Positions 6,557 through 61,641 of a stretch of 64,000 nt of DNA are shown piece after piece; positions within the stretch are counted from its first letter, which is position 1; every line of letters begins with the position of its first letter. The stretch comes from an uncultured Fibrobacterota bacterium (lineage in GTDB: Bacteria; Fibrobacterota; Chitinivibrionia; Chitinivibrionales; FEN-1185). The stretch covers positions 32,001-96,000 of the forward strand of contig CAVWBU010000021.1 of the NCBI GenBank assembly GCA_963753345.1, in the 5' to 3' direction. A program made the position numbers and the translations under genes. Below the pieces are notes generated by a model, which was not told the DNA's origin, searched no databases, and was given only the letters and a program-made list of their open reading frames with translations.

Positions 6557-6676
6557 TTGGATTCCATAGCGAGCGCATTCCTCGAAGCTTGCTTCGGGGT
6601 TAGCGGGCGACTACAAGTATGTTTTTTCTTCTATAGGAATGGAAGATTCTCCGCAGCTGGCTGCGGGGGTCTTCAA
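6557..6676 (+). mobile_element. Two-hairpin miniature element, copy 1 (in the marR leader)
   Basis: TTGGA...GCGAGCGCATTCCTCGAAGCTTGCTTCGGGGTTAGCG...CTCCGCAGCTGGCTGCGGGGG..TTCAA; aligns with four other copies. Confidence 0.85.
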
Positions 6677-7329: not shown

Positions 7330-8919
7330 ATGCATGACCGTTTTGCCAAGTCCATTCCTTCCCTGCATCACGAGCACGAATCATACAAGTGGTGGGTGCT
7401 GGCAAACGTCATGATCGGCACGTTTGTAATCGTGCTCAACAATACGATCGTTAACACGGCACTGCCTAAGATGATGGCGTCTTTGGGCATCACGGTGGAC
7501 CAGGCAGAGTGGATCATCACGGTGTTCATGCTTGCGTTTGCGATTATGCTCCCCACGTCTGGATGGCTCGCGGACCGCTTCGGGTACAAGCGCACCTATG
7601 CGGCCGGGATGGCCGTCTTCACATTGTTTTCCTTCTTGTGCGCCCTGTCCAGGGACGAAAAGAGCCTCATTCTCATGCGCATTGGGCAAGGCCTTGGCGG
7701 TGGCCTCATTCAACCGCTCGGCATGGCTATTGTCATGCGCGAATTTCCTCCGCAGCAGCGCGGAATGGCAATGGGCTTCTGGACTATCTCCTCGGCCGCT
7801 TCGGTGTCTCTGGGACCGCTTCTCGGCGGGTATCTGTCTGACAACTTCGACTGGCATCTGATCTTCACGATCAATGTTCCGGTCGGAATCCTCTGTTTCT
7901 TCGCAACCTGGATCATTCAGCGCGAGTACAGGAAGCAGCAGGAGCACTCTTTCGACATAGTCGGCTTCGTGTCCATGGCGGCGTTCTTGGGGTTTCTCCT
8001 TGTAGCCCTCAGCAGCGGCAACGCCGGTTGGAACGCTGGCGGCTGGACCTCGGATTTCATGATGGTTTGCTACCTGTTCTCGGCCGTCGGCTTCGTGGTG
8101 TTCCTTATCACCGAGCTAAACGTGAAATATCCGTTTGTGAAGATACAGCTTCTAGGCACCTACAACTTTGGACTCTCGAATGTCGTAATGTTCATATTCG
8201 GCATTGGCATGTTCGGAAGCACGTTTCTCCTGCCGCTGTACCTGCAGAATGCGCTTGGCTATACTGCGTTTCAGTCCGGCATGGTGTTGCTGCCGGTGGG
8301 GATCATGCAGGCCTTCTTCGGAGCGTTTGCGGGATACATTTCCGACAGGATAAATCCGAAGATCCCCATCATTCTCGGAATTGCACTTTTTTCACTCAGC
8401 TTTTTCCTCAATTCGAACCTTTCCCTTTTCTCGGAGAATTTCCAGATCATGATGCCCATGTACCTGCGTGGAGTCGCCATGGGCATCCTATTCTCTCCCC
8501 TGAGCACACTGATCATAGCACACATTCCTCACAAGGACATGGCGCAGGCTTCCGGGCTCATGAATGCGGTGAGGCAGGTGGGAGGAAGTTTTGGTGTGGC
8601 GATCATGCAGACGCTGCTTACGCAGCGTATCACCTTTCACACGGCAATTTCGGGCACCAGGATCGATCCCTCGTCTCCGGTGTTCCAGAACACTATCAGG
8701 ATGTTGCGGACCCACGCCATTTACGATGCCGGATCGTGCTCGCATGATGCTGCTGCCCAGAGCACCGCGATATTCGCATCCCATTTCTTTCAGCAGATGT
8801 TCGTGTGGGGAATCAACGACGCGTTCCTGTTTTCTAGTATTTGTACGGCGCTTTGCATAATCCCAGTTCTCGTTTTGAAAGGAAAAAGGAATATTCGGGA
8901 ACCCCGCCCTGGAAGGTGA
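7330..8919 (+). CDS. DHA2 (EmrB/QacA) family MFS efflux permease
   Basis: LNNTIVNTALP, GWLADRFGYKR, GPLLGGYL..WHLIFTINVPVG, RQVGGSFG. Confidence 0.92.
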   Translation: MHDRFAKSIPSLHHEHESYKWWVLANVMIGTFVIVLNNTIVNTALPKMMASLGITVDQAEWIITVFMLAFAIMLPTSGWLADRFGYKRTYAAGMAVFTLFSFLCALSRDEKSLILMRIGQGLGGGLIQPLGMAIVMREFPPQQRGMAMGFWTISSAASVSLGPLLGGYLSDNFDWHLIFTINVPVGILCFFATWIIQREYRKQQEHSFDIVGFVSMAAFLGFLLVALSSGNAGWNAGGWTSDFMMVCYLFSAVGFVVFLITELNVKYPFVKIQLLGTYNFGLSNVVMFIFGIGMFGSTFLLPLYLQNALGYTAFQSGMVLLPVGIMQAFFGAFAGYISDRINPKIPIILGIALFSLSFFLNSNLSLFSENFQIMMPMYLRGVAMGILFSPLSTLIIAHIPHKDMAQASGLMNAVRQVGGSFGVAIMQTLLTQRITFHTAISGTRIDPSSPVFQNTIRMLRTHAIYDAGSCSHDAAAQSTAIFASHFFQQMFVWGINDAFLFSSICTALCIIPVLVLKGKRNIREPRPGR

Positions 8920-37629: not shown

Positions 37630-38320
37630 AACAGCACACCAAGGAGAAGCTGGCTTCTGAATTAAGGAATATACATGATAGGTTTCAAACAGCTTTTGTT
37701 CACCTATCGCATAATTTTGAAGAGGTGGCACAGGTGGCGGACAGGGTCGCCCTTATGAAAACAGGTTCTGTTGAACAAATAGGCACCGTGAATGAAATAC
37801 TCAAGCATCCTGTCAGCAGGTATGCGGCTGAATTTACAAGGACAAAAAATATTTTTGAAGGGACATCTGATTTACTTGAAAATGGTCGAACAGCCATTTG
37901 CCTTGGGAACGGCATTTCATTGAATCCCACGCGAGCGCATTCCTCGAAGCTTGCTTCGGGGTTAGCGAGCGACTACAAAAATGTCTTATTCCATAGGGAT
38001 GGAAAGATTCCCCGCAGCTTGCTGCGGGCTCTTTCAATTCTTGCGTTGAATATACAGGCAAGGTTTTGGTCACCATTAGGCCCGAAGCAATATGCGTAAG
38101 CGACAAGCCCTATACGATGTCCGAAAACATGTTCAGGGGAAGAGTTTTGAAAACATGGAACATGGGAATCTTCACAAGGATAGATATTGACATCGGCATT
38201 GTGGTTTCCGCGTATATGCCAAATCATCCATGTAACGGAAATTTTGGAAAGAATGATGATATTGTTTATATACACATACCACCCGAATCGATAAATATGA
38301 TTAAATGCAGTCAGGGATGA
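37630..38320 (+). pseudogene. C-terminal remnant of a ModC/WtpC-like ABC ATPase, interrupted by the miniature element
   Basis: HLSHNFEEVAQVADRVALM...TKNIFEG, then in another frame VTIRPEAI...ENMFRGRV; Walker A/B region missing. Confidence 0.75.
37920..38037 (+). mobile_element. Two-hairpin miniature element, copy 2 (113 bp net, frameshifting)
   Basis: TTGAA...TTCAA ends; removal restores GISLNSCVEYTGKVLVTIRPE. Confidence 0.9.
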
Positions 38321-51658: not shown

Positions 51659-53074
51659 ATGAAAAAGTCCCGTATTTTTAAGTGGACCGGCTATGGTGTG
51701 CTCGCGGTACTGTTGCTGGGCGTTGCGATGTTTCTTTTTCTTAACAGAACCTCTTCATCAAAAATAGTTCTGGCTGATGAGGTTAAAGAGCATAGTATTA
51801 TGCTCCACAATGCGAACGGCGATCATGCGTGCGACTGTTTCCAGCCATGGATCTCGAAGGTTACGATTTCGAACATAACCTGTAATTCTATTGATGTCTC
51901 GTGGGCAAGCGGCACCTATGAAAACACGGCGGGTCCTGCAACCTATCAGGTGACATATGGTACAACTTCGGCCAAGGCCAGTATCTACCCGACTACACTG
52001 CCCACTACTGCGTATACCCAGTATACTGTTACCGTGCCAAACCTGACTGCCGGCACCCTCTATCACCTCGGAGTAAAAGGCTGTTGTTTGAGCAACTGTG
52101 ACAGAGGCGGCGGTCCTACCTACTGCAAAACAAGGGAGCAGAGTTCCGGCACGACTGATTGGACAGCCACCACCTTGGCGTCGTGCTCGGGCCATACCAT
52201 ATCAGGCATTGTCGGCACAACCGCATCCGGAAAACGCTTGGCAAAAACGGCCACGGGAATTACCGGGGTCCTCGTTACGTTGTCGGGCGGCGCTTCAAAA
52301 ACGATGACCACGGCGGCCGACGGGTCATACTCGTTTGCTGGTCTGGCACTGGGTACCTATACCGTTACCCCGACTAAAACCGGCATGATATTCACTCCTC
52401 CGAGCAAAACCTTTACCGCTTTGAATGCGGACTCGACCGGCAAGAACTTTATGGGAGTGGCGACAGCCGTACTGAACCCGGTATCGGAAACTGCCGTCAT
52501 GTCGGAAGTTGAAGCGGCGAAAATCACGGCATCAGACGTGACCGTCACCTGGAAGACGAACATACCCGCAGCCTCTTTGGTCGAATACGGTTTGACCAAG
52601 GACTATGGAATGAAAAGCGGAGTGAACGCAGAGCTGGTCTATAATCATTACATTCAATTGTTCGAACTCCAGAAAGGTGCCACGTATCATGCCCGGGCTG
52701 TTTCCTATGCGGAAGGCAATCCAACGGCAGTCTCGTACTCGTCGGATTTTACCTTCACCGTACCGTCAACCGAAAACAGAATATCGGATAGAACGCGCAT
52801 TTTGACTGAGCCCAATCCGGCTGCCCGCTGGACCATGTTCACGTACTATCTCTACCAGCCGGTCAAGAGCGTGAACATAGAAGTCCTTACGCTTTCGGGG
52901 AAACTTGTGGCGACCCTGGAAAGCCCTTCGAGCTCTCTGGCTGGAGGCTGGAACAAAGTAAGGTGGGACAACATCAATCTTTCAAATGGTCTGTATGTGT
53001 ACAGGATGGTATTTAAAACCCCCACCAATCTTCAAGAGCAATACAGCTTCTCCAACTTGAGGATAGAAAAATAA
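51659..53074 (+). CDS. Exported Cys-rich FN3 / prealbumin-like / FN3 protein with T9SS-like C-terminal domain
   Basis: N-terminal hydrophobic helix; NLTAGTLYH, ADGSYSFAGL..GTYTVTP, VTWKTN...VEYG, EPNP...LSNGLYVYR; SD GGAGG. Confidence 0.8.
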   Translation: MKKSRIFKWTGYGVLAVLLLGVAMFLFLNRTSSSKIVLADEVKEHSIMLHNANGDHACDCFQPWISKVTISNITCNSIDVSWASGTYENTAGPATYQVTYGTTSAKASIYPTTLPTTAYTQYTVTVPNLTAGTLYHLGVKGCCLSNCDRGGGPTYCKTREQSSGTTDWTATTLASCSGHTISGIVGTTASGKRLAKTATGITGVLVTLSGGASKTMTTAADGSYSFAGLALGTYTVTPTKTGMIFTPPSKTFTALNADSTGKNFMGVATAVLNPVSETAVMSEVEAAKITASDVTVTWKTNIPAASLVEYGLTKDYGMKSGVNAELVYNHYIQLFELQKGATYHARAVSYAEGNPTAVSYSSDFTFTVPSTENRISDRTRILTEPNPAARWTMFTYYLYQPVKSVNIEVLTLSGKLVATLESPSSSLAGGWNKVRWDNINLSNGLYVYRMVFKTPTNLQEQYSFSNLRIEK

Positions 53075-53107
53075 CCCGTGTAGGTTGCACAACAATACGC
53101 GTGCAGT

Positions 53108-53142
53108 TCCCCCTCGACTTCCTGTCGAGGGGGATTTTTTTT
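53108..53142 (+). terminator. Intrinsic terminator
   Basis: TCCCCCTCGAC-TTCCT-GTCGAGGGGGA followed by T8. Confidence 0.88.
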
Positions 53143-53186
53143 ACCGAAGTCGAAGCATGAAACGTCTGCTTTGACAGGGGCGAATA

Positions 53187-53588
53187 TCAAGCGGGGGAAT
53201 TGATGCGCTGGCGGATAAAATCGCTGATGAGGTCCTCGGCGCTGTTGTCGATAGTGACAAACGAGAGGCCGAACGTGACCGTGGTCGCCTTTGACGATGT
53301 CGCGCCGCGCAGGAAATAGGCGATGGTGGCGGTCGCGGCGATGGCCTTTGGGGTACCGGGAAGCTGGCACGAGAATTCGATGAGTATGTACTGGTCCACC
53401 AGCGTCTCAACCTGCGCCTCCGGCATCGGCGCGGTGACCTTCACGCCGCCCATGCTTAGATCGGCTGTGGAGCCGTTAATCCAGTCTGTTAGCGGTTTCG
53501 AAGTCTTTTCCTCGATCAATCGGAACCGGGCCGGTGCAACAACCTCTATCCTGAAGAACTTCCTGCGCTCTGCATTCGTCATCGCCAT
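53187..53588 (-). CDS. PilZ domain protein
   Basis: ERRKFFR and DLSMGG c-di-GMP motifs. Confidence 0.88.
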   Translation of the reverse strand: MAMTNAERRKFFRIEVVAPARFRLIEEKTSKPLTDWINGSTADLSMGGVKVTAPMPEAQVETLVDQYILIEFSCQLPGTPKAIAATATIAYFLRGATSSKATTVTFGLSFVTIDNSAEDLISDFIRQRINSPA

Positions 53589-53691
53589 AGGTGGTGCCCT
53601 TCTAAAATTGAAAAGCTACTGTTTCTTTGATTATATGAAAATGGGCTCGTGAAGTCAAGCCGATACCATTTACCACTTCTTTACCGCGCTA

Positions 53692-53809
53692 TTGAAGAAC
53701 CCCGCCCCAAGTGGCGGGGATTCTTCCATAGCTAAGGAAATAGAATAACAAATATTCGCCCGCTAACCGCGCGCCAAGTCGCGGGGAATGCGCGGGCTGT
53801 GCTATTCAA
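53692..53809 (-). mobile_element. Two-hairpin miniature element, copy 3 (diverged, opposite orientation, 113 bp net)
   Basis: TTGAAGAACCCCGCCCCAAGTGGCGGGGA...GCTAACCGCGCGCCAAGTCGCGGGGAATGCGC...TTCAA; overlaps the stop codon of the upstream gene. Confidence 0.8.
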
Positions 53810-54794
53810 ACAGTTCCTTCATTACATCGCCTTTTGCATACGGGGTAGGAATGTTGAAGAGAGTTCCCACGGTTCGACAGATATCGATAAGGGTTCTTTC
53901 TTTATTGGAAACGAAATTCTTCTTGATCCCAGGCCCGATTGCCAGGAGAAAAAGTTCCGTGCACCCCCGGCACTTGTCCCCATAGCCGTGGTAATCGTCG
54001 GTGTGCCTTCCGTGGACGCTCATTACCAGAAAAACCGTCTTGTCCTTATAGACGTCCACTTTCTGAATCCGGTCCCAGAGATCCCAGGTAATCTGATCCA
54101 TAAGGATTATCGACTCGTAGTAGGCATTCAGGCCAGCGGCACCGCCGCATGCATCCTTCTGACCCTTCAATGGGCATTCGGCAGCAAGTTCCTTCTCCGG
54201 TGTGAGCGTGCCGCCCCCGCCATTAAGGCTGAGATACACGAAAGCAGGGTGTTTTTCCATGATATGGGGCAGCGCCTTCTCATAGATCGCGTTTTCGTTT
54301 TCATCCTCCTTCTTGCTGGACTCAAATACCGGCGCATACTTTGCCCCGAACTCGGCGTGATCACTGCAGGTTAGAATTTCGAATGTAGACTTGCATGAGG
54401 CGAAATAACAGGGATTGCCGGGTTCCTTCTTGGCGCTGTTCCAGTATTCAAACAGGGTCGGGAAGGCGGGACGAATGGTTTCGCTGAACGGATTTTTAAA
54501 AACATGCCACACGCCGGTAAGAAGGCTCATCTGCGCCGGAATGGGCAGGGTGAGTTCGCGATTCTCGAACTTGGTGCAGATTGTCCCCAGAGGCCGGAGT
54601 TTGTTCCAGATATTGTCGATGTACAGGTGGTTCTTGTCGCCGAACGCATCGGAGTAGCGCGCGCCGTTCATCACGATGATGAACAGATTTTTGGCCTGGG
54701 ATTTCGCCGGAATGGACTGGTCGCCGGCGTTCGACGGCATGGCCGTTACAAGGAACGTCGCAATGAAAGGGAATAGTATTTTGGAGGGGATCAT
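53802..54794 (-). CDS. Exported alkaline-phosphatase-superfamily protein (degenerate motifs)
   Basis: NLFIIVMNGARYSD, SLLTG, PTLFEY, SVHGRH, LLAIGPGIK, IDICRT. Confidence 0.72.
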   Translation of the reverse strand: MIPSKILFPFIATFLVTAMPSNAGDQSIPAKSQAKNLFIIVMNGARYSDAFGDKNHLYIDNIWNKLRPLGTICTKFENRELTLPIPAQMSLLTGVWHVFKNPFSETIRPAFPTLFEYWNSAKKEPGNPCYFASCKSTFEILTCSDHAEFGAKYAPVFESSKKEDENENAIYEKALPHIMEKHPAFVYLSLNGGGGTLTPEKELAAECPLKGQKDACGGAAGLNAYYESIILMDQITWDLWDRIQKVDVYKDKTVFLVMSVHGRHTDDYHGYGDKCRGCTELFLLAIGPGIKKNFVSNKERTLIDICRTVGTLFNIPTPYAKGDVMKELFE

Positions 54795-54796
54795 AT

Positions 54797-55729
54797 TTAT
54801 TTGTTCTTGGTGAATATGGCCACTTCGGTTATTCTGTTTCTTCCGTCCTTTACTTTCAAGAGAATATCCTTGGTGAGAATGGGCTTTTCCAGGTCGAAGG
54901 TGATATGGTCGTCATGCCCGCTGTTTTCCACCTTGCCGGCCCATTGCAGCCTGTCGAACTGGTCGGTATACCCTAGTTCGCAATTGAACATAACGTTCTT
55001 CTTTTTCAAGCTGTCCGCCACGGTATACACTGTTACCCTGTAGATATCCTGCAGTTTCGGCAAGGTAATTTCAGCCATGAGCAGGGCGACCGGTTTCGTC
55101 GTCACATCTCGCTCAAATATCTCGCCGAAATAGGTGGTGTTGTCAGCGGTGTCGGCTTCTGTTTTCCCGTCAATAATCTGTTTTATGCGCAGCTTGTCTG
55201 TCCTGTTGGTGGTATTGACCGTAATACAGTCTGCACTTCTCATATTGTCACAGCAGAGGCAATGTCCTCCGACCACGTATTCACCCCACCCGGTGGCGCG
55301 GATTTTTTTGTCCGTCAAAACGATATTCGTCAACCCCTTCATATCAACGCCGGGGTTCGTTGGAGGTGATTCTTTTTGAACGACGGTTTTGTTTTTTGAG
55401 AGCGAATCCCCTTGAGCCGGCATGCCTTCCTTTGCAGTCGAATCGCTCGCGGCCATGAGTTTTATTTTCGAAAGCGAATCCTCCTGGGCCGCGACCCCTG
55501 CACAGAAAAACCAAAGGAACACGGCAAACGAGGCCGCCGCGAGCAATGAGACGGGTGCCGCGGGCTTAAGCGTGCAACCAACCTCCGGCGATTGAATCCC
55601 ACAGCGAGCGCATTCCCCGAAGGTTGCTTCGGGGTTAGCGAGCGAATACAAATATTTCTTCTTCCATAGGGATGGAAGGATTCCCCGCAGCTTGCTGAGG
55701 GGACCTTCAATAAGTGAAAATGTTTTCAC
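54797..55729 (-). CDS. Exported hypothetical protein with in-frame element in its N-terminus
   Basis: Signal peptide h-region follows the 38-aa element peptide; HCLCC motif; adjacent to neighbouring genes. Confidence 0.7.
   Translation of the reverse strand: MKTFSLIEGPLSKLRGILPSLWKKKYLYSLANPEATFGECARCGIQSPEVGCTLKPAAPVSLLAAASFAVFLWFFCAGVAAQEDSLSKIKLMAASDSTAKEGMPAQGDSLSKNKTVVQKESPPTNPGVDMKGLTNIVLTDKKIRATGWGEYVVGGHCLCCDNMRSADCITVNTTNRTDKLRIKQIIDGKTEADTADNTTYFGEIFERDVTTKPVALLMAEITLPKLQDIYRVTVYTVADSLKKKNVMFNCELGYTDQFDRLQWAGKVENSGHDDHITFDLEKPILTKDILLKVKDGRNRITEVAIFTKNK
55592..55710 (+). mobile_element. Two-hairpin miniature element, copy 4 (114 bp net, in frame)
   Basis: Encodes IEGPLSKLRGILPSLWKKKYLYSLANPEATFGECARCGIQ on the minus strand. 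Confidence 0.92.
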
Positions 55730-55731
55730 TA

Positions 55732-57195
55732 TTACAGTTCCTTTTTTTGAGATCCCCAGTCCTCCCAGGTCGCCCCATTATCCCTGCTTGTTTTTAAGAA
55801 TATCCTTGACCATTCGGTTTTGTCTTTCGGTACATCAAACCAGAATACATGCAATAATCCGGAAGCGGTCCTCGTTATGATGGGATTATTATGGCTTCCG
55901 ACATCCGAGGTAAGTTCCTTTTTTTCCTTGAGGACATTTCCTGCGGGATCGATCTCGCCGTAGGAGACAATCGACTCGCCTCCCAAAAAGCTTGCCCACG
56001 TAAAATGGAGATTGCCGTCTTTGTCAAACACCACCGACGGGCGTTTCGGGGACCTCTTCTCCAGAGGATAGAGGTTCCTCCCGGTGATGGGACATTTGTC
56101 CGTTGCGGGATCGAACCGGGCGTAAAAAATCTCGCCGAGCTGTATATTGCGCCTGTCAAGCCAGAAAAGGTAGGACAGGGAACCGTCCGAAAGCATTATG
56201 GGATTGTCAATTTCCTCTTTGGTTTCCTTGGCGACCTTGGTCTTCGATACAATCTGCTCGTCACCCCAGCTGCGGCCGTTGTCATTGCTCTTCCGAAGCA
56301 CAACGGAAGAAACCATATCCTCATTGCCCTTCCAGAGCCCGACCCCGTTCCACCCCAAACTCAGTCCCTTTTTATCCTCCTTGAAATCGGTCCACACCAC
56401 GACCAGTTCATTGCCGGTGCATGCAATGGCCGGCGGATAGCAATAGCATGAATGCTTGCCCACTTTTCCCAGAAGCATCTCTTTTTCCCAGGTTAAACCC
56501 CGGTCGCGGCTGGCCTTGAAATAAACCTTGTTTTCTACGTCCTGCCATATCAGATACACATTGTCTTCCTTGCAGGCAAGCAACGGATAACGCGCGCTGT
56601 TGGCATCGGTGATGAGGATGCGGTTCTTTTCCCATGTTGCTCCTCTGTCAAGACTTCGGGAGTAGTAGAGCTCCCCGTCCACCCTTTCGCCGTAATCCAC
56701 CCATGCCACGTGTACAATACCCGAATTCACTGCCATTGCAGGAGGATAACAATCCGCCTTTTCATTGCTTAACTTCCGGGCGCTTGTCCATTCTTTTCCC
56801 TCGTCGGCGCTCCGCCGGTAATAGATGCTTGCCGTCACTCCCTCCGTAACAACCCATGTCATGTGGATGTTATTTCCCTCCGAGACGACGGCGGGGTATC
56901 TGCAGTCTCCGGCCATGGAAATAAAGGCCGAGGCTGAGTCGGTTTTTTTCGCAGGTAGGGAGGCGGAGGCCGAATCGGCTCTTTTCATGGATGCCAAGGC
57001 TGAAGCGGAGTCTGCCGCCAGGCAGATGACGGCCAAGACCATGATCAGGAAACAGGTTTCAATCCCACAGCGAGCGGATTCCCCGAAGCTTGCTTCGGGG
57101 TTAGCGAGCGAATACAATTTATTCTTCTTCCCTAGGGATGGAAGGATTCCCCGCAGCTTGCTGCGGGGTCCTTCAATACAGGTCCGAAATCTCAT
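55732..57195 (-). CDS. Exported BNR/Asp-box (sialidase-like) repeat protein with in-frame element
   Basis: Five S-x-D-x-G-x-x-W boxes. Confidence 0.8.
   Translation of the reverse strand: MRFRTCIEGPRSKLRGILPSLGKKNKLYSLANPEASFGESARCGIETCFLIMVLAVICLAADSASALASMKRADSASASLPAKKTDSASAFISMAGDCRYPAVVSEGNNIHMTWVVTEGVTASIYYRRSADEGKEWTSARKLSNEKADCYPPAMAVNSGIVHVAWVDYGERVDGELYYSRSLDRGATWEKNRILITDANSARYPLLACKEDNVYLIWQDVENKVYFKASRDRGLTWEKEMLLGKVGKHSCYCYPPAIACTGNELVVVWTDFKEDKKGLSLGWNGVGLWKGNEDMVSSVVLRKSNDNGRSWGDEQIVSKTKVAKETKEEIDNPIMLSDGSLSYLFWLDRRNIQLGEIFYARFDPATDKCPITGRNLYPLEKRSPKRPSVVFDKDGNLHFTWASFLGGESIVSYGEIDPAGNVLKEKKELTSDVGSHNNPIITRTASGLLHVFWFDVPKDKTEWSRIFLKTSRDNGATWEDWGSQKKEL
57058..57176 (+). mobile_element. 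Two-hairpin miniature element, copy 5 (114 bp net, in frame)
   Basis: Encodes IEGPRSKLRGILPSLGKKNKLYSLANPEASFGESARCGIE; removal gives the signal peptide MRFRTCIETCFLIMVLAVICLAA. Confidence 0.92.
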
Positions 57196-58276
57196 TATTA
57201 ACCTCAGGCAATTTGCCGTTCTTATTAAGAAATCTTTCCAGCAACTCGTTCTCTCTCATGGTATACATACCATGCTCTTCGAATCGGAAGAAACGGGCCT
57301 TTTCCACGGATTTATATTTTTCGTGCAGGTCCTTGCGTATATTGTCGGCGCCTCGAATATAAATTATCTCCTGCTTTTCGTCGAACAGCTGGTAGACGCC
57401 ACTCACTTCGGGAACTTTTTTAATATTCTCTTCGGTTAATGCAAGGTCATCCTCCGGCGGCAGTATGACAGGCGCGAGCTTCAGTTCCGCTTTCTTTTTC
57501 CATGCCAGCCCTTTGTCCATCAGAGCGCCTGTAGGGCAAACTACAACGCAGGCGCCGCAGAACACGCACCCTGATTCCTTATGGGAAGGACCCAAAGTCC
57601 CCATAGCAAACTCGCCGTTATGAAAGGTGAAGCCAATGACCCGTTTTCCCTGCATCTTCTCGCACGCACGAACACAACGGGCGCATCCTATGCAGAGATT
57701 GCCGTTGTTGGAAAAAAAAGGTGTGTCCACGACAGGAACTTTCTTGAACACGTATTGCGAAACATCTTCTTTGATGGTAACATATTCACACACGCTCTGG
57801 AATTCACAATCATCGAATTTGGAACAGCATCGGCCTTGCATTTCTACGCCCATGGAGCACTCTTCCCGCTCACAGCCTTCCCTTTCTGCGCAAAGAAGAC
57901 ATGCATGAGGATGAAGAGAGAGTATTCGCTCCAGGTTATCTCTTCTTATTTCTTTTACCGCAGCGGTGTTTGAATAAATTACCATGCCATCTTCAACGAG
58001 CGTGGCGCAGGATGGAGAAGGACCTCTCCCCTTGATCTCGACGATGCAGATATTGCATCCATCATATGTTTGGTGATTTTCATTCCTGTCCGCGATGATT
58101 CCACCGTTCCGAAATACCCTGGCGTCGGCCTTTGTTCCCGGCCCTGGCGGTAAATCCGGATGATAACAAAGTCGGGGAATGTAGATCCCCGCTACATCTG
58201 CCGCCTCGATAATCGAAGCCCCCTCTTGGGTATGGACTTCATGATTATCAATTGATATGGTTATTTCTTTTCCCAC
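57173..58276 (-). CDS. BzdV-like 2Fe-2S/4Fe-4S electron-transfer protein without flavin domain
   Basis: IYIPRLCYH, CNIC, SCAT, HPHACLLC, CIGCARCVRAC, CVFCGACVVVCP, C-terminal PEVSGVYQL...MYTMRENELL. Confidence 0.75.
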   Translation of the reverse strand: MGKEITISIDNHEVHTQEGASIIEAADVAGIYIPRLCYHPDLPPGPGTKADARVFRNGGIIADRNENHQTYDGCNICIVEIKGRGPSPSCATLVEDGMVIYSNTAAVKEIRRDNLERILSLHPHACLLCAEREGCEREECSMGVEMQGRCCSKFDDCEFQSVCEYVTIKEDVSQYVFKKVPVVDTPFFSNNGNLCIGCARCVRACEKMQGKRVIGFTFHNGEFAMGTLGPSHKESGCVFCGACVVVCPTGALMDKGLAWKKKAELKLAPVILPPEDDLALTEENIKKVPEVSGVYQLFDEKQEIIYIRGADNIRKDLHEKYKSVEKARFFRFEEHGMYTMRENELLERFLNKNGKLPEVNNEISDLY

Positions 58277-60303: not shown

Positions 60304-61641
60304 TTAATAGAGGTCATCGGTTGAAGTTTTTGTCGCCAGCATCTCAAGAAAGGCCTCGATTCGGGTCTTCATCTGACCGCTGTCTTCGCGGCTGTATTCC
60401 GTATCGAGGTAGTATATCGGAATGTGCTCTTTTTCGAACAGACGCTTGAGGCGCAGATATTCCATGGCATACAGATGACAACCGCGTATGACATGATAGA
60501 TCACGCCGCTGATCTTGTAGTCCTTTACCAGGGTTTGCAGCTTGTCGATCCTGTCCTGGTTCCCGTCTTCCGAGGTGAAACAGGGGCAGGTGCACGGCAG
60601 AATATATCGTTCCGCAATTGCCTTCAGCATATCACCGGCTGACCCTTCATCAACCCCTACGGGATCGTAGAATATCCGGTCGCCGGAGCAGAATTCATCC
60701 GCAACAATCAAACCCTGCGGTTTTGATTCTTCAATCAGATTGGGAATTTTCCAGCAATCCGGCCAAATCATCGGAGAACCGGTGAGGAGAATCCTTGGTG
60801 TGTCCAGCGGAGCAACGTATGCCTTTTCGGCAGCTTTCTTTTCGAGTTCGTCACAAAGCTGGTTGGTCTTTTCCGTCCATCTCGCAAGATCGTCAAAATA
60901 GCTCATCTGGTCCACCAGCATCGCATCCCTTCCGGAAATGAGAGGAGCGCCTTTCCGTAAATCCAGTAATCGGCGAGATGCCGCTGTTGCCGCCAGGGTC
61001 GTTTTTATTGCAGTACGCATTGCTTTTCTGGTTATCGATTTGCCCGTGAGCTTTTCTATCTTTTCCTTTACCTCTTTTACCTGGTCCAGCCAATAGCGTT
61101 TCGCCTGCGGAGTATCCTTTACTCTGGGCACATTCATCTCCCATACGGGAAACGCATCGGTCAAAATCTCGCACACCTTTGTCTTTCCGTCGCACGTATT
61201 CGGGGAGATGATGACGTCACACATTTCAAGATAGGGATACAGATCCGCCATTGCCAGACCGATCATGGATCTGACGACGGGGCAGACCTCCACCGGAACG
61301 ATTCTATCGCCTATCTTGCTCGGCGTGTAGAATCCCGAATCAATGCGAACAGGAATGGCGCCTGCGGCCAGGATAAGTTCAACGGGCGCCAACATGCAGG
61401 CAAAGCCGATCACCTTGCCTCCCTGCGCTTTAAAATCACGGATTTCTTTTTCCCTTTGGCCGAAAAAATCCGCCGCCTGGTCGAAATATTCCATGGCTTT
61501 GGGCCGGTTCGGGACAAGTCTCATCTTCTCAATATTTTCAGCGACGGTCTTCTGAACACCGGCCTTGAATGCCTTTTGCAGCTCGTCCTTCTCTTCTGGG
61601 GCAAGCGTAGGAAGATATTTTGGATCGTTGTTGGTTTTCAC
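60304..61641 (-). CDS. 2-hydroxyacyl-CoA dehydratase family protein, double-cubane-cluster (DCCP/YjiM) type
   Basis: GFAC, VCP, TCDGK, EFCSG, CTCPCF, GCHLY Cys pattern; TEYS..D.GQ.KTRIEAFLE. Confidence 0.82.
   Translation of the reverse strand: MKTNNDPKYLPTLAPEEKDELQKAFKAGVQKTVAENIEKMRLVPNRPKAMEYFDQAADFFGQREKEIRDFKAQGGKVIGFACMLAPVELILAAGAIPVRIDSGFYTPSKIGDRIVPVEVCPVVRSMIGLAMADLYPYLEMCDVIISPNTCDGKTKVCEILTDAFPVWEMNVPRVKDTPQAKRYWLDQVKEVKEKIEKLTGKSITRKAMRTAIKTTLAATAASRRLLDLRKGAPLISGRDAMLVDQMSYFDDLARWTEKTNQLCDELEKKAAEKAYVAPLDTPRILLTGSPMIWPDCWKIPNLIEESKPQGLIVADEFCSGDRIFYDPVGVDEGSAGDMLKAIAERYILPCTCPCFTSEDGNQDRIDKLQTLVKDYKISGVIYHVIRGCHLYAMEYLRLKRLFEKEHIPIYYLDTEYSREDSGQMKTRIEAFLEMLATKTSTDDLY

Follow-up and report, generated by a model that had tools for sequence, protein, structure and literature searches.

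A gene-less IS200/IS605-like element inserted in frame between start codon and hydrophobic core of two neighbouring genes

Two neighbouring minus-strand genes of an uncultured Fibrobacterota bacterium each carry, after codon 6, an in-frame and stop-free copy of a short repeated element, and residues 7-44 (38 residues) of both the 487-aa BNR-repeat protein and the 310-aa protein next to it are element-derived. Both copies lie in a 64,000-nt stretch of the source genome (G000), referred to here as the window. We consider it probable that a TnpA-type transposase inserted them in trans, that purifying selection acted on such insertions, and that copies survived where triplet length, an open frame and a tolerant host segment coincide. 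The 38 extra residues are likely tolerated rather than useful and the inserts are probably neutral; nothing here demonstrates a function.

Results

Empty alleles and upstream starts

The initial annotation had described two adjacent genes with a near-identical 38-aa insert, and comparison with orthologs, as it had proposed, confirmed a net insertion of 114 bp in each (Table 1). At the BNR site (57063) G005 has an empty allele and G004 a filled one, and the site at 55597 is empty in G004. Empty sites are clean at 57063, C32:176054 (against L147) and C41:153297, while that at 55597 is clean in length with two substitutions in its flanks. Natural empty alleles are also represented among proteins by P0002 (MRFRTCIETCFLIM...) and P0121 (VKTFSLFQSPKVGC...).

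Table 1. Element copies, their parts and host genes. Positions without a contig name refer to the window.
Feature	Position	Strand	Remark
PATE-like copy 1, 114 bp	55597..55710	+	empty site in G004; active strand inferred to be +, antisense to the gene
Copy 1 left guide CATT	55611-55614	+	
Copy 1 left hairpin	55615-55634	+	
Copy 1 right guide	55679-55682	+	
Copy 1 right hairpin	55683-55702	+	
Copy 1 right end TCAA	55707-55710	+	
Host target TGAA of copy 1	55593..55596	+	already in empty allele
PATE-like copy 2, 114 bp, retargeted variant	57063..57176	+	empty site in G005
Copy 2 left guide GATT	57077-57080	+	
Copy 2 right end TCAA	57173-57176	+	now provides TGA stop of upstream Fe-S gene
Host target TCAA of copy 2	57059..57062	+	already in empty allele; Ile-Glu of conserved IET motif on the other strand
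BNR-repeat (sialidase-like) protein, 487 aa	55732..57195	-	Pfam BNR_2, E 5.8e-15
Exported protein, unnamed family, 310 aa	54797..55729	-	motif GWGEY-x-VGG-x-CLCCDN conserved; 78 homologs
2Fe-2S/4Fe-4S and DUF7508 protein	57173..58276	-	last 23 nt overlap BNR gene start
113-bp copy, second subfamily	53692..53804	-	first three bases are TAG stop of 53802-54794
113-bp copy	37925..38037	+	frameshifts ABC-ATPase-like ORF
115-bp copy	6562..6676	+	5' leader of MarR-like ORF; in-frame ATG three codons downstream
In-frame copy after codon 3, polytopic membrane protein	C41:111293		ortholog start in G002
In-frame copy at codon 2-3, opposite orientation, exported protein	C41:153297		96%-identical empty allele in G001
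In-frame copy in loop near C-terminus, radical SAM/DUF2344 protein	C49:207506		
In-frame 117-bp copy in the genome's only ispD match (L036, G000)	C26:213064-213180		1-nt frameshift 23 codons downstream
113-bp-subfamily copy shortened to 102 bp, in frame after codon 9 of a VOC-like gene (L035, G000)	C46:52109-52210		VOC-like by eye

The start codons probably lie upstream of the element rather than downstream of it, being conserved in homologs with intact SD-like motifs. An MRFxTFI-type N-terminus opens 61 of 94 BNR homologs, just 13 of these 61 having a Met near the h-region, and the overlap with the Fe-S gene may in part impose this conservation. In homologs of the 310-aa protein the start is kept after the BNR stop, with n-regions that vary from about 5 to 45 aa. 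The h-region of the BNR protein follows the element residues, and signals of about 60 aa and about 81 aa were predicted by eye for the BNR and 310-aa proteins, respectively. Judging from sequence, conservation of the starts supports translation from upstream, and cleavage is predicted after the h-region of a signal with an extended n-region. The two window peptides are basic (7 and 6 K/R against 3 D/E), which suits an n-region. At 57180-57210 on the minus strand, in G000 as in G004, the BNR gene has its ATG and SD-like motif within a predicted 8-bp hairpin, and a hairpin hiding this motif would fit translational coupling.

Alternatively, translation might restart at a TTG in the unpaired central spacer, or at the Met of the h-region, with about 19 residues or none added and the open frame a by-product of a stop-free subfamily. 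In each frame used, the central spacer does contain a TTG or ATG that could serve as an internal start; in both copies the in-frame TTG is preceded by GGAAG, a strong hairpin begins about 21 nt after the ancestral start, and the C44/C46 and L187 copies lie in leaders with downstream ATGs. However, the upstream starts and SD-like motifs have remained intact, and with a start at the h-region Met, which is not conserved, the signal would shrink to about 10 aa. Moreover, the G004 copy at the BNR site has acquired an extra 42-bp nested insert before the TTG as well as a TGA>TAA change, yet the BNR gene stays in frame and the Fe-S gene keeps its stop. We therefore regard restart as rather unlikely.

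It is also conceivable that the filled alleles arose recently, do not function or are badly exported, and have yet to be purged. The element peptide occurs in only 1 of 198 homologs, the window's own protein, two genes with in-frame copies, ispD and the VOC-like gene, are broken, and the sole RNA contigs found represent empty alleles. Against this, both filled ORFs are intact and full length in G000, and two genomes that are 84% identical in protein both have an intact, filled BNR site; we consider decaying alleles very unlikely.

The 310-aa protein has no Pfam match. In its family (78 homologs) GWGEY, CxCCD and further Cys are invariant, and these residues may form a metal site. The surrounding operon encodes a DCCP-like dehydratase, a BadF-type ATPase, ferredoxins and sulfatase-like proteins. 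Best matches of the 60304-61641 product are PDB 7yyl/6eno (E ~1e-79), which we take to be DCCP, and the DCCP label is plausible. In G004 (L016, ~7690-7765) a different hairpin insert of ~75 bp occupies the next gene junction of the same operon.

Anatomy and distribution of the element

The 95 nhmmer matches in G000 yielded 74 complete copies of 45-202 bp, eight nhmmer clusters being incomplete when copies were delimited. The commonest lengths are 113 bp (14 copies) and 114 bp (12 copies). Triplet length was rejected as evidence of selection because 30 of the 74 copies, mostly intergenic, have it; by itself it is unremarkable, 114 bp being one of the two commonest lengths genome-wide.

On the plus strand, host TGAA is followed by 14 nt, guide CATT, a hairpin, a spacer, guide GATT, a second hairpin, 4 nt and the right end TCAA, after which comes T or A. 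None of the 74 copies contains a transposase ORF, and all are too short to encode one. The two subterminal hairpins are near-identical with 8-bp stems, there are no terminal inverted repeats, and DNA folding z-scores of copies range from -3.9 to -4.5. Empty sites already contain the left tetranucleotide; insertion takes place 3' of host TGAA or TCAA without target duplication. The target was TGAA in 71 of 77 metagenome copies, and T was preferred at position +1 (78/88). The boundaries proposed in the initial annotation, TT(G/C)AA...TTCAA, turned out to be neither inverted repeats nor a target duplication, one being the host target and the other the element end. A MITE model with terminal inverted repeats and target site duplication is likewise ruled out by the empty sites: of the features of MITEs and Rickettsia palindromic elements (RPE), both of these are absent and in-frame fusion into conserved host genes is present.

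Core-deleted forms of 45-46 bp and copies with inserts nested within hairpins were found. Recurring 27-66-bp modules nested inside hairpins and tandem right-end/left-end junctions were seen in many copies of G000, G004 and L161-L254. The element was present in all seven family-level relatives searched. Its exact left-end pattern was recovered from 22 genome records, all titled Fibrobacterota or Chitinivibrionales, and variants with other left-end spacers from 94 metagenome stretches. Rfam gave three sub-threshold matches within 53000-58000, none on the element.

The reading frame of the window peptides is usually closed by TAG, in place of which the subfamily used here has TAT. We rejected TAG>TAT as an adaptation after insertion because intergenic copies in G004 carry TAT too; the stop-free frame is accordingly a pre-adaptation, not post-insertion tuning. 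The non-triplet copies of the window had been assigned to a pseudogene, a stop codon and a leader, which was borne out in each case (Table 1), the ABC-like and MarR-like labels being assigned by eye from the translations.

Target choice follows the left guide

Across 106 pattern rows from seven genomes, with seven rows bearing A- or T-first guides set aside, the target was TCAA for 10 of 11 copies with a G-first guide versus 3 of 88 with a C-first guide. Two of these three exceptions are tandem junctions, and the one remaining G-guide copy sits at TGAA. The copy at 57063 combines guide GATT with target TCAA. A single-base difference in the left guide goes with the difference in target in the way expected from the IS608 pairing (G1:C2, G2:C1); for IS608 itself, PMC5934647 reports, in its available text, guide-target pairing A+16:T-3 and A+17:T-4 and a +1 base preference. 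The G-guide copies probably go back to one mutation and represent separate insertions.

A transposase partner was sought in several ways. G000 has no Y1_Tnp and no TnpB-family match, and none of 13 TnpA/RAYT loci of relatives has the ends of the element, other ends or repeats being found there. With two queries, no TnpA was detected up to 1.5 kb from any of 95 metagenome/viral loci and 22 genome loci. No tnpA/tnpB element sharing the ends was found in these limited searches of incomplete genomes, and mobility by TnpA is consequently inferred. One viral match was obtained in the search for an autonomous partner. G002 (L018, L022, L025-L030) contains a multi-copy IS200 element with a 144-aa tnpA, unrelated ends and one interrupted copy. 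The tandem right-end/left-end junctions in G001 and G004 resemble, by analogy, a circle junction.

In-frame copies concentrate at gene starts

Only 9 of the 74 copies were classed as coding by a simple hexamer-model gene caller, compared to ~53 of 74 expected by random placement on TGAA-T/A sites; the ortholog check left out the 65 copies not classed as coding. Five of the 74 keep the frame of an intact gene, two more are in frame but their genes carry a frameshift farther along, and two frameshift their own gene. Of the five, four fall within the first 7 codons and precede a hydrophobic segment, whereas the first 10 codons hold 7.5% of the coding target sites (binomial, 4 of 8, P = 0.0017; numbers are small and the two window copies are not independent). 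A random copy has a probability of 0.115 of being both triplet in length and open in a random frame. Insertion itself may be biased towards gene starts.

The 1-nt frameshift in ispD reflects either a broken gene or an assembly error. The VOC-like gene is frameshifted later and has an intact paralog upstream. Being in frame is, given these two frameshifted genes, no guarantee of function. C44:3240 and C46:15396 were removed from the N-terminal list since their orthologs start downstream, and C15:121543 was kept unclassified. The two removed copies lie in duplicate FG-GAP genes of G000 with a common insertion in the leader; in the C44 copy the downstream ATG is lost, and translation would have to begin within or ahead of the element.

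Among 77 parsed metagenome copies, those in L219 and L185 lie between start and h-region, that in L252 directly after the signal and that in L210 in a membrane-protein loop, with starts judged by SD-like motifs and 60-73% identical G000 orthologs. In G004, 34 parsed copies include a clear N-terminal fusion only at the shared BNR site, which counts against the generality of a safe harbour (the parse including G004 held 54 copies and left out 24 motif matches lacking a parsed left end). At L005 (G002:C37:6791 region) two tandem in-frame stop-free copies lie between a candidate GTG and a signal-like h-region and would add ~100 aa.

The signal n-region had been proposed as a safe harbour because a basic peptide placed there is cleaved off on export. 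The harbour itself is supported by the excess of N-terminal copies in exported and membrane proteins, four of five in-frame copies against the 7.5% null; the proposed reason is not. The other N-terminal copies use two other frames, and with three frames in use a basic, cleaved peptide is not required. Their peptides are near-neutral or slightly acidic, and one is in a polytopic membrane protein whose N-terminus may stay uncleaved. The common factor is thus a tolerant cytoplasm-facing N-terminus, not basicity or cleavage.

Sequencing runs and regulation

The locus is present in DNA runs X1 and X4, where contigs break at repeats; runs with a small share were left out. Contigs from RNA run X18 are empty at both sites and derive from a strain about 9% divergent (~90% identical), with DNA carry-over possible. 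Removal of the element from RNA was rejected as an explanation: the X18 contigs differ by that margin from the window and match natural empty alleles of a related strain, which argues against splicing. The sequencing runs gave no RNA evidence for filled alleles.

The copies might instead be kept for hairpin-mediated regulation of translation or mRNA stability in the distal operon genes, as the initial annotation had suggested, or for excision that toggles the alleles. Three copies with stable folds do occur at successive gene junctions of one operon, and effects of MITEs on mRNA are described in the available part of PMC2229807. However, the sites are patchily filled or empty among relatives, neither copy 1 nor copy 2 has an intrinsic-terminator match, and no joined form was seen in the DNA runs examined. 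Maintenance for either purpose is in our view most improbable.

Discussion

Taken together, these results favour a model in which a gene-less two-hairpin element would be moved from in trans by an IS200/IS605-type transposase through TnpA peel-and-paste. Purifying selection would clear most coding insertions, with those in n-regions and loops surviving. A 114-base stop-free copy between start codon and hydrophobic core would merely lengthen a tolerant, cytoplasm-facing part of the signal. Ribosomes would still initiate at the ancestral start, probably coupled, in the case of the BNR gene, to translation of the Fe-S gene that overlaps it; signal peptidase would trim off the extension. The retargeted copy at the BNR site restores the Fe-S stop through its own end.

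More tentatively, and with somewhat less than even confidence, n-regions may be a general prokaryotic sanctuary for IS200-type mini-elements, in which scar-free insertion meets an extension-tolerant signal and selfish DNA stacks up, and hence a route to extended signal peptides. On the same tentative reading, natural guide-programmed retargeting from TGAA to TCAA within one family opened a site where the element rebuilds one stop and keeps the overlapping frame. For annotators, the lesson is that an exported protein can owe a long, odd N-terminus to mobile DNA, with its true start possibly upstream all the same. The alleles let one ask, in a natural setting, how much extension a Sec n-region can take. 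They also provide a naturally occurring case of target switching directed by the guide, as known from engineered IS608. The ingredients, PATEs and in-frame palindromic inserts, are already known singly.

Comparison with known systems

REP/REPIN-RAYT systems also consist of hairpin repeats mobilized in trans by an HUH-type mechanism. The present element differs: it has no GTAG/CGTC tag, its tetranucleotide target is fixed and both its ends, left and right, are defined. RAYT-like loci of relatives carry other repeats. Naturally extended Sec signals exist in autotransporters. Within the openly readable literature, we found no paper on an n-region bias of such elements. PMC2775950 and PMC7002104 describe IS605 stem-loops at lipoprotein 3' ends and replacement of the bop N-terminus by a MITE; neither case, in the available text, is an in-frame n-region extension.

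The analogy to RPE drawn in the initial annotation holds for in-frame coding fusion and fails for the boundaries, the anatomy being that of IS200/IS605 (PATE) rather than of RPE or MITEs. Coding fusions are shared with RPE, ERIC/RU-1 and YPAL/RU-2, which the accessible portions of PMC2229807, PMC2759123 and PMC10969869 describe as TIR/MITE-like, unlike the HUH-type element here. Unlike in those families, an existing signal is split between start and h-region, and in-frame copies amount to only 7 of 74.

The element closely resembles the PATEs of Haloquadratum walsbyi and Natronomonas (PMC3119063). As in the available account of those elements, there is no ORF, terminal inverted repeat or target duplication; near-terminal palindromes are similar, core-deleted forms of ~50 bp and inserts nested in palindromes occur, and mobility does not depend on an intact transposase in the genome. 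The element thus has IS200/IS605 anatomy without a gene and shows the testable PATE features except a known parent. It differs in being bacterial and unrelated in sequence, with no parent IS found here, and in its in-frame coding copies and guide-switch variants, which are absent from that account of PATEs as far as available.

For IS608, the available text of PMC3201880 gives spacings of 19 nt between target and left hairpin and of 10 nt between right hairpin and TCAA, and places a guide 5' of each hairpin; the corresponding distances here are 18 nt from target to left foot and 8 nt from right foot to TCAA. Shared with IS608 and the IS200/IS605 family, as presented in the accessible parts of PMC3201880 and PMC5934647, are a tetranucleotide target 5' of the left end, the right end TCAA, guides 5' of the hairpin feet, a +1 preference and a target that follows the guide. 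Unlike IS608, the element carries no tnpA or tnpB, uses TGAA/TCAA rather than TTAC as target, has mostly T as third guide base, and shows retargeting as a natural polymorphism.
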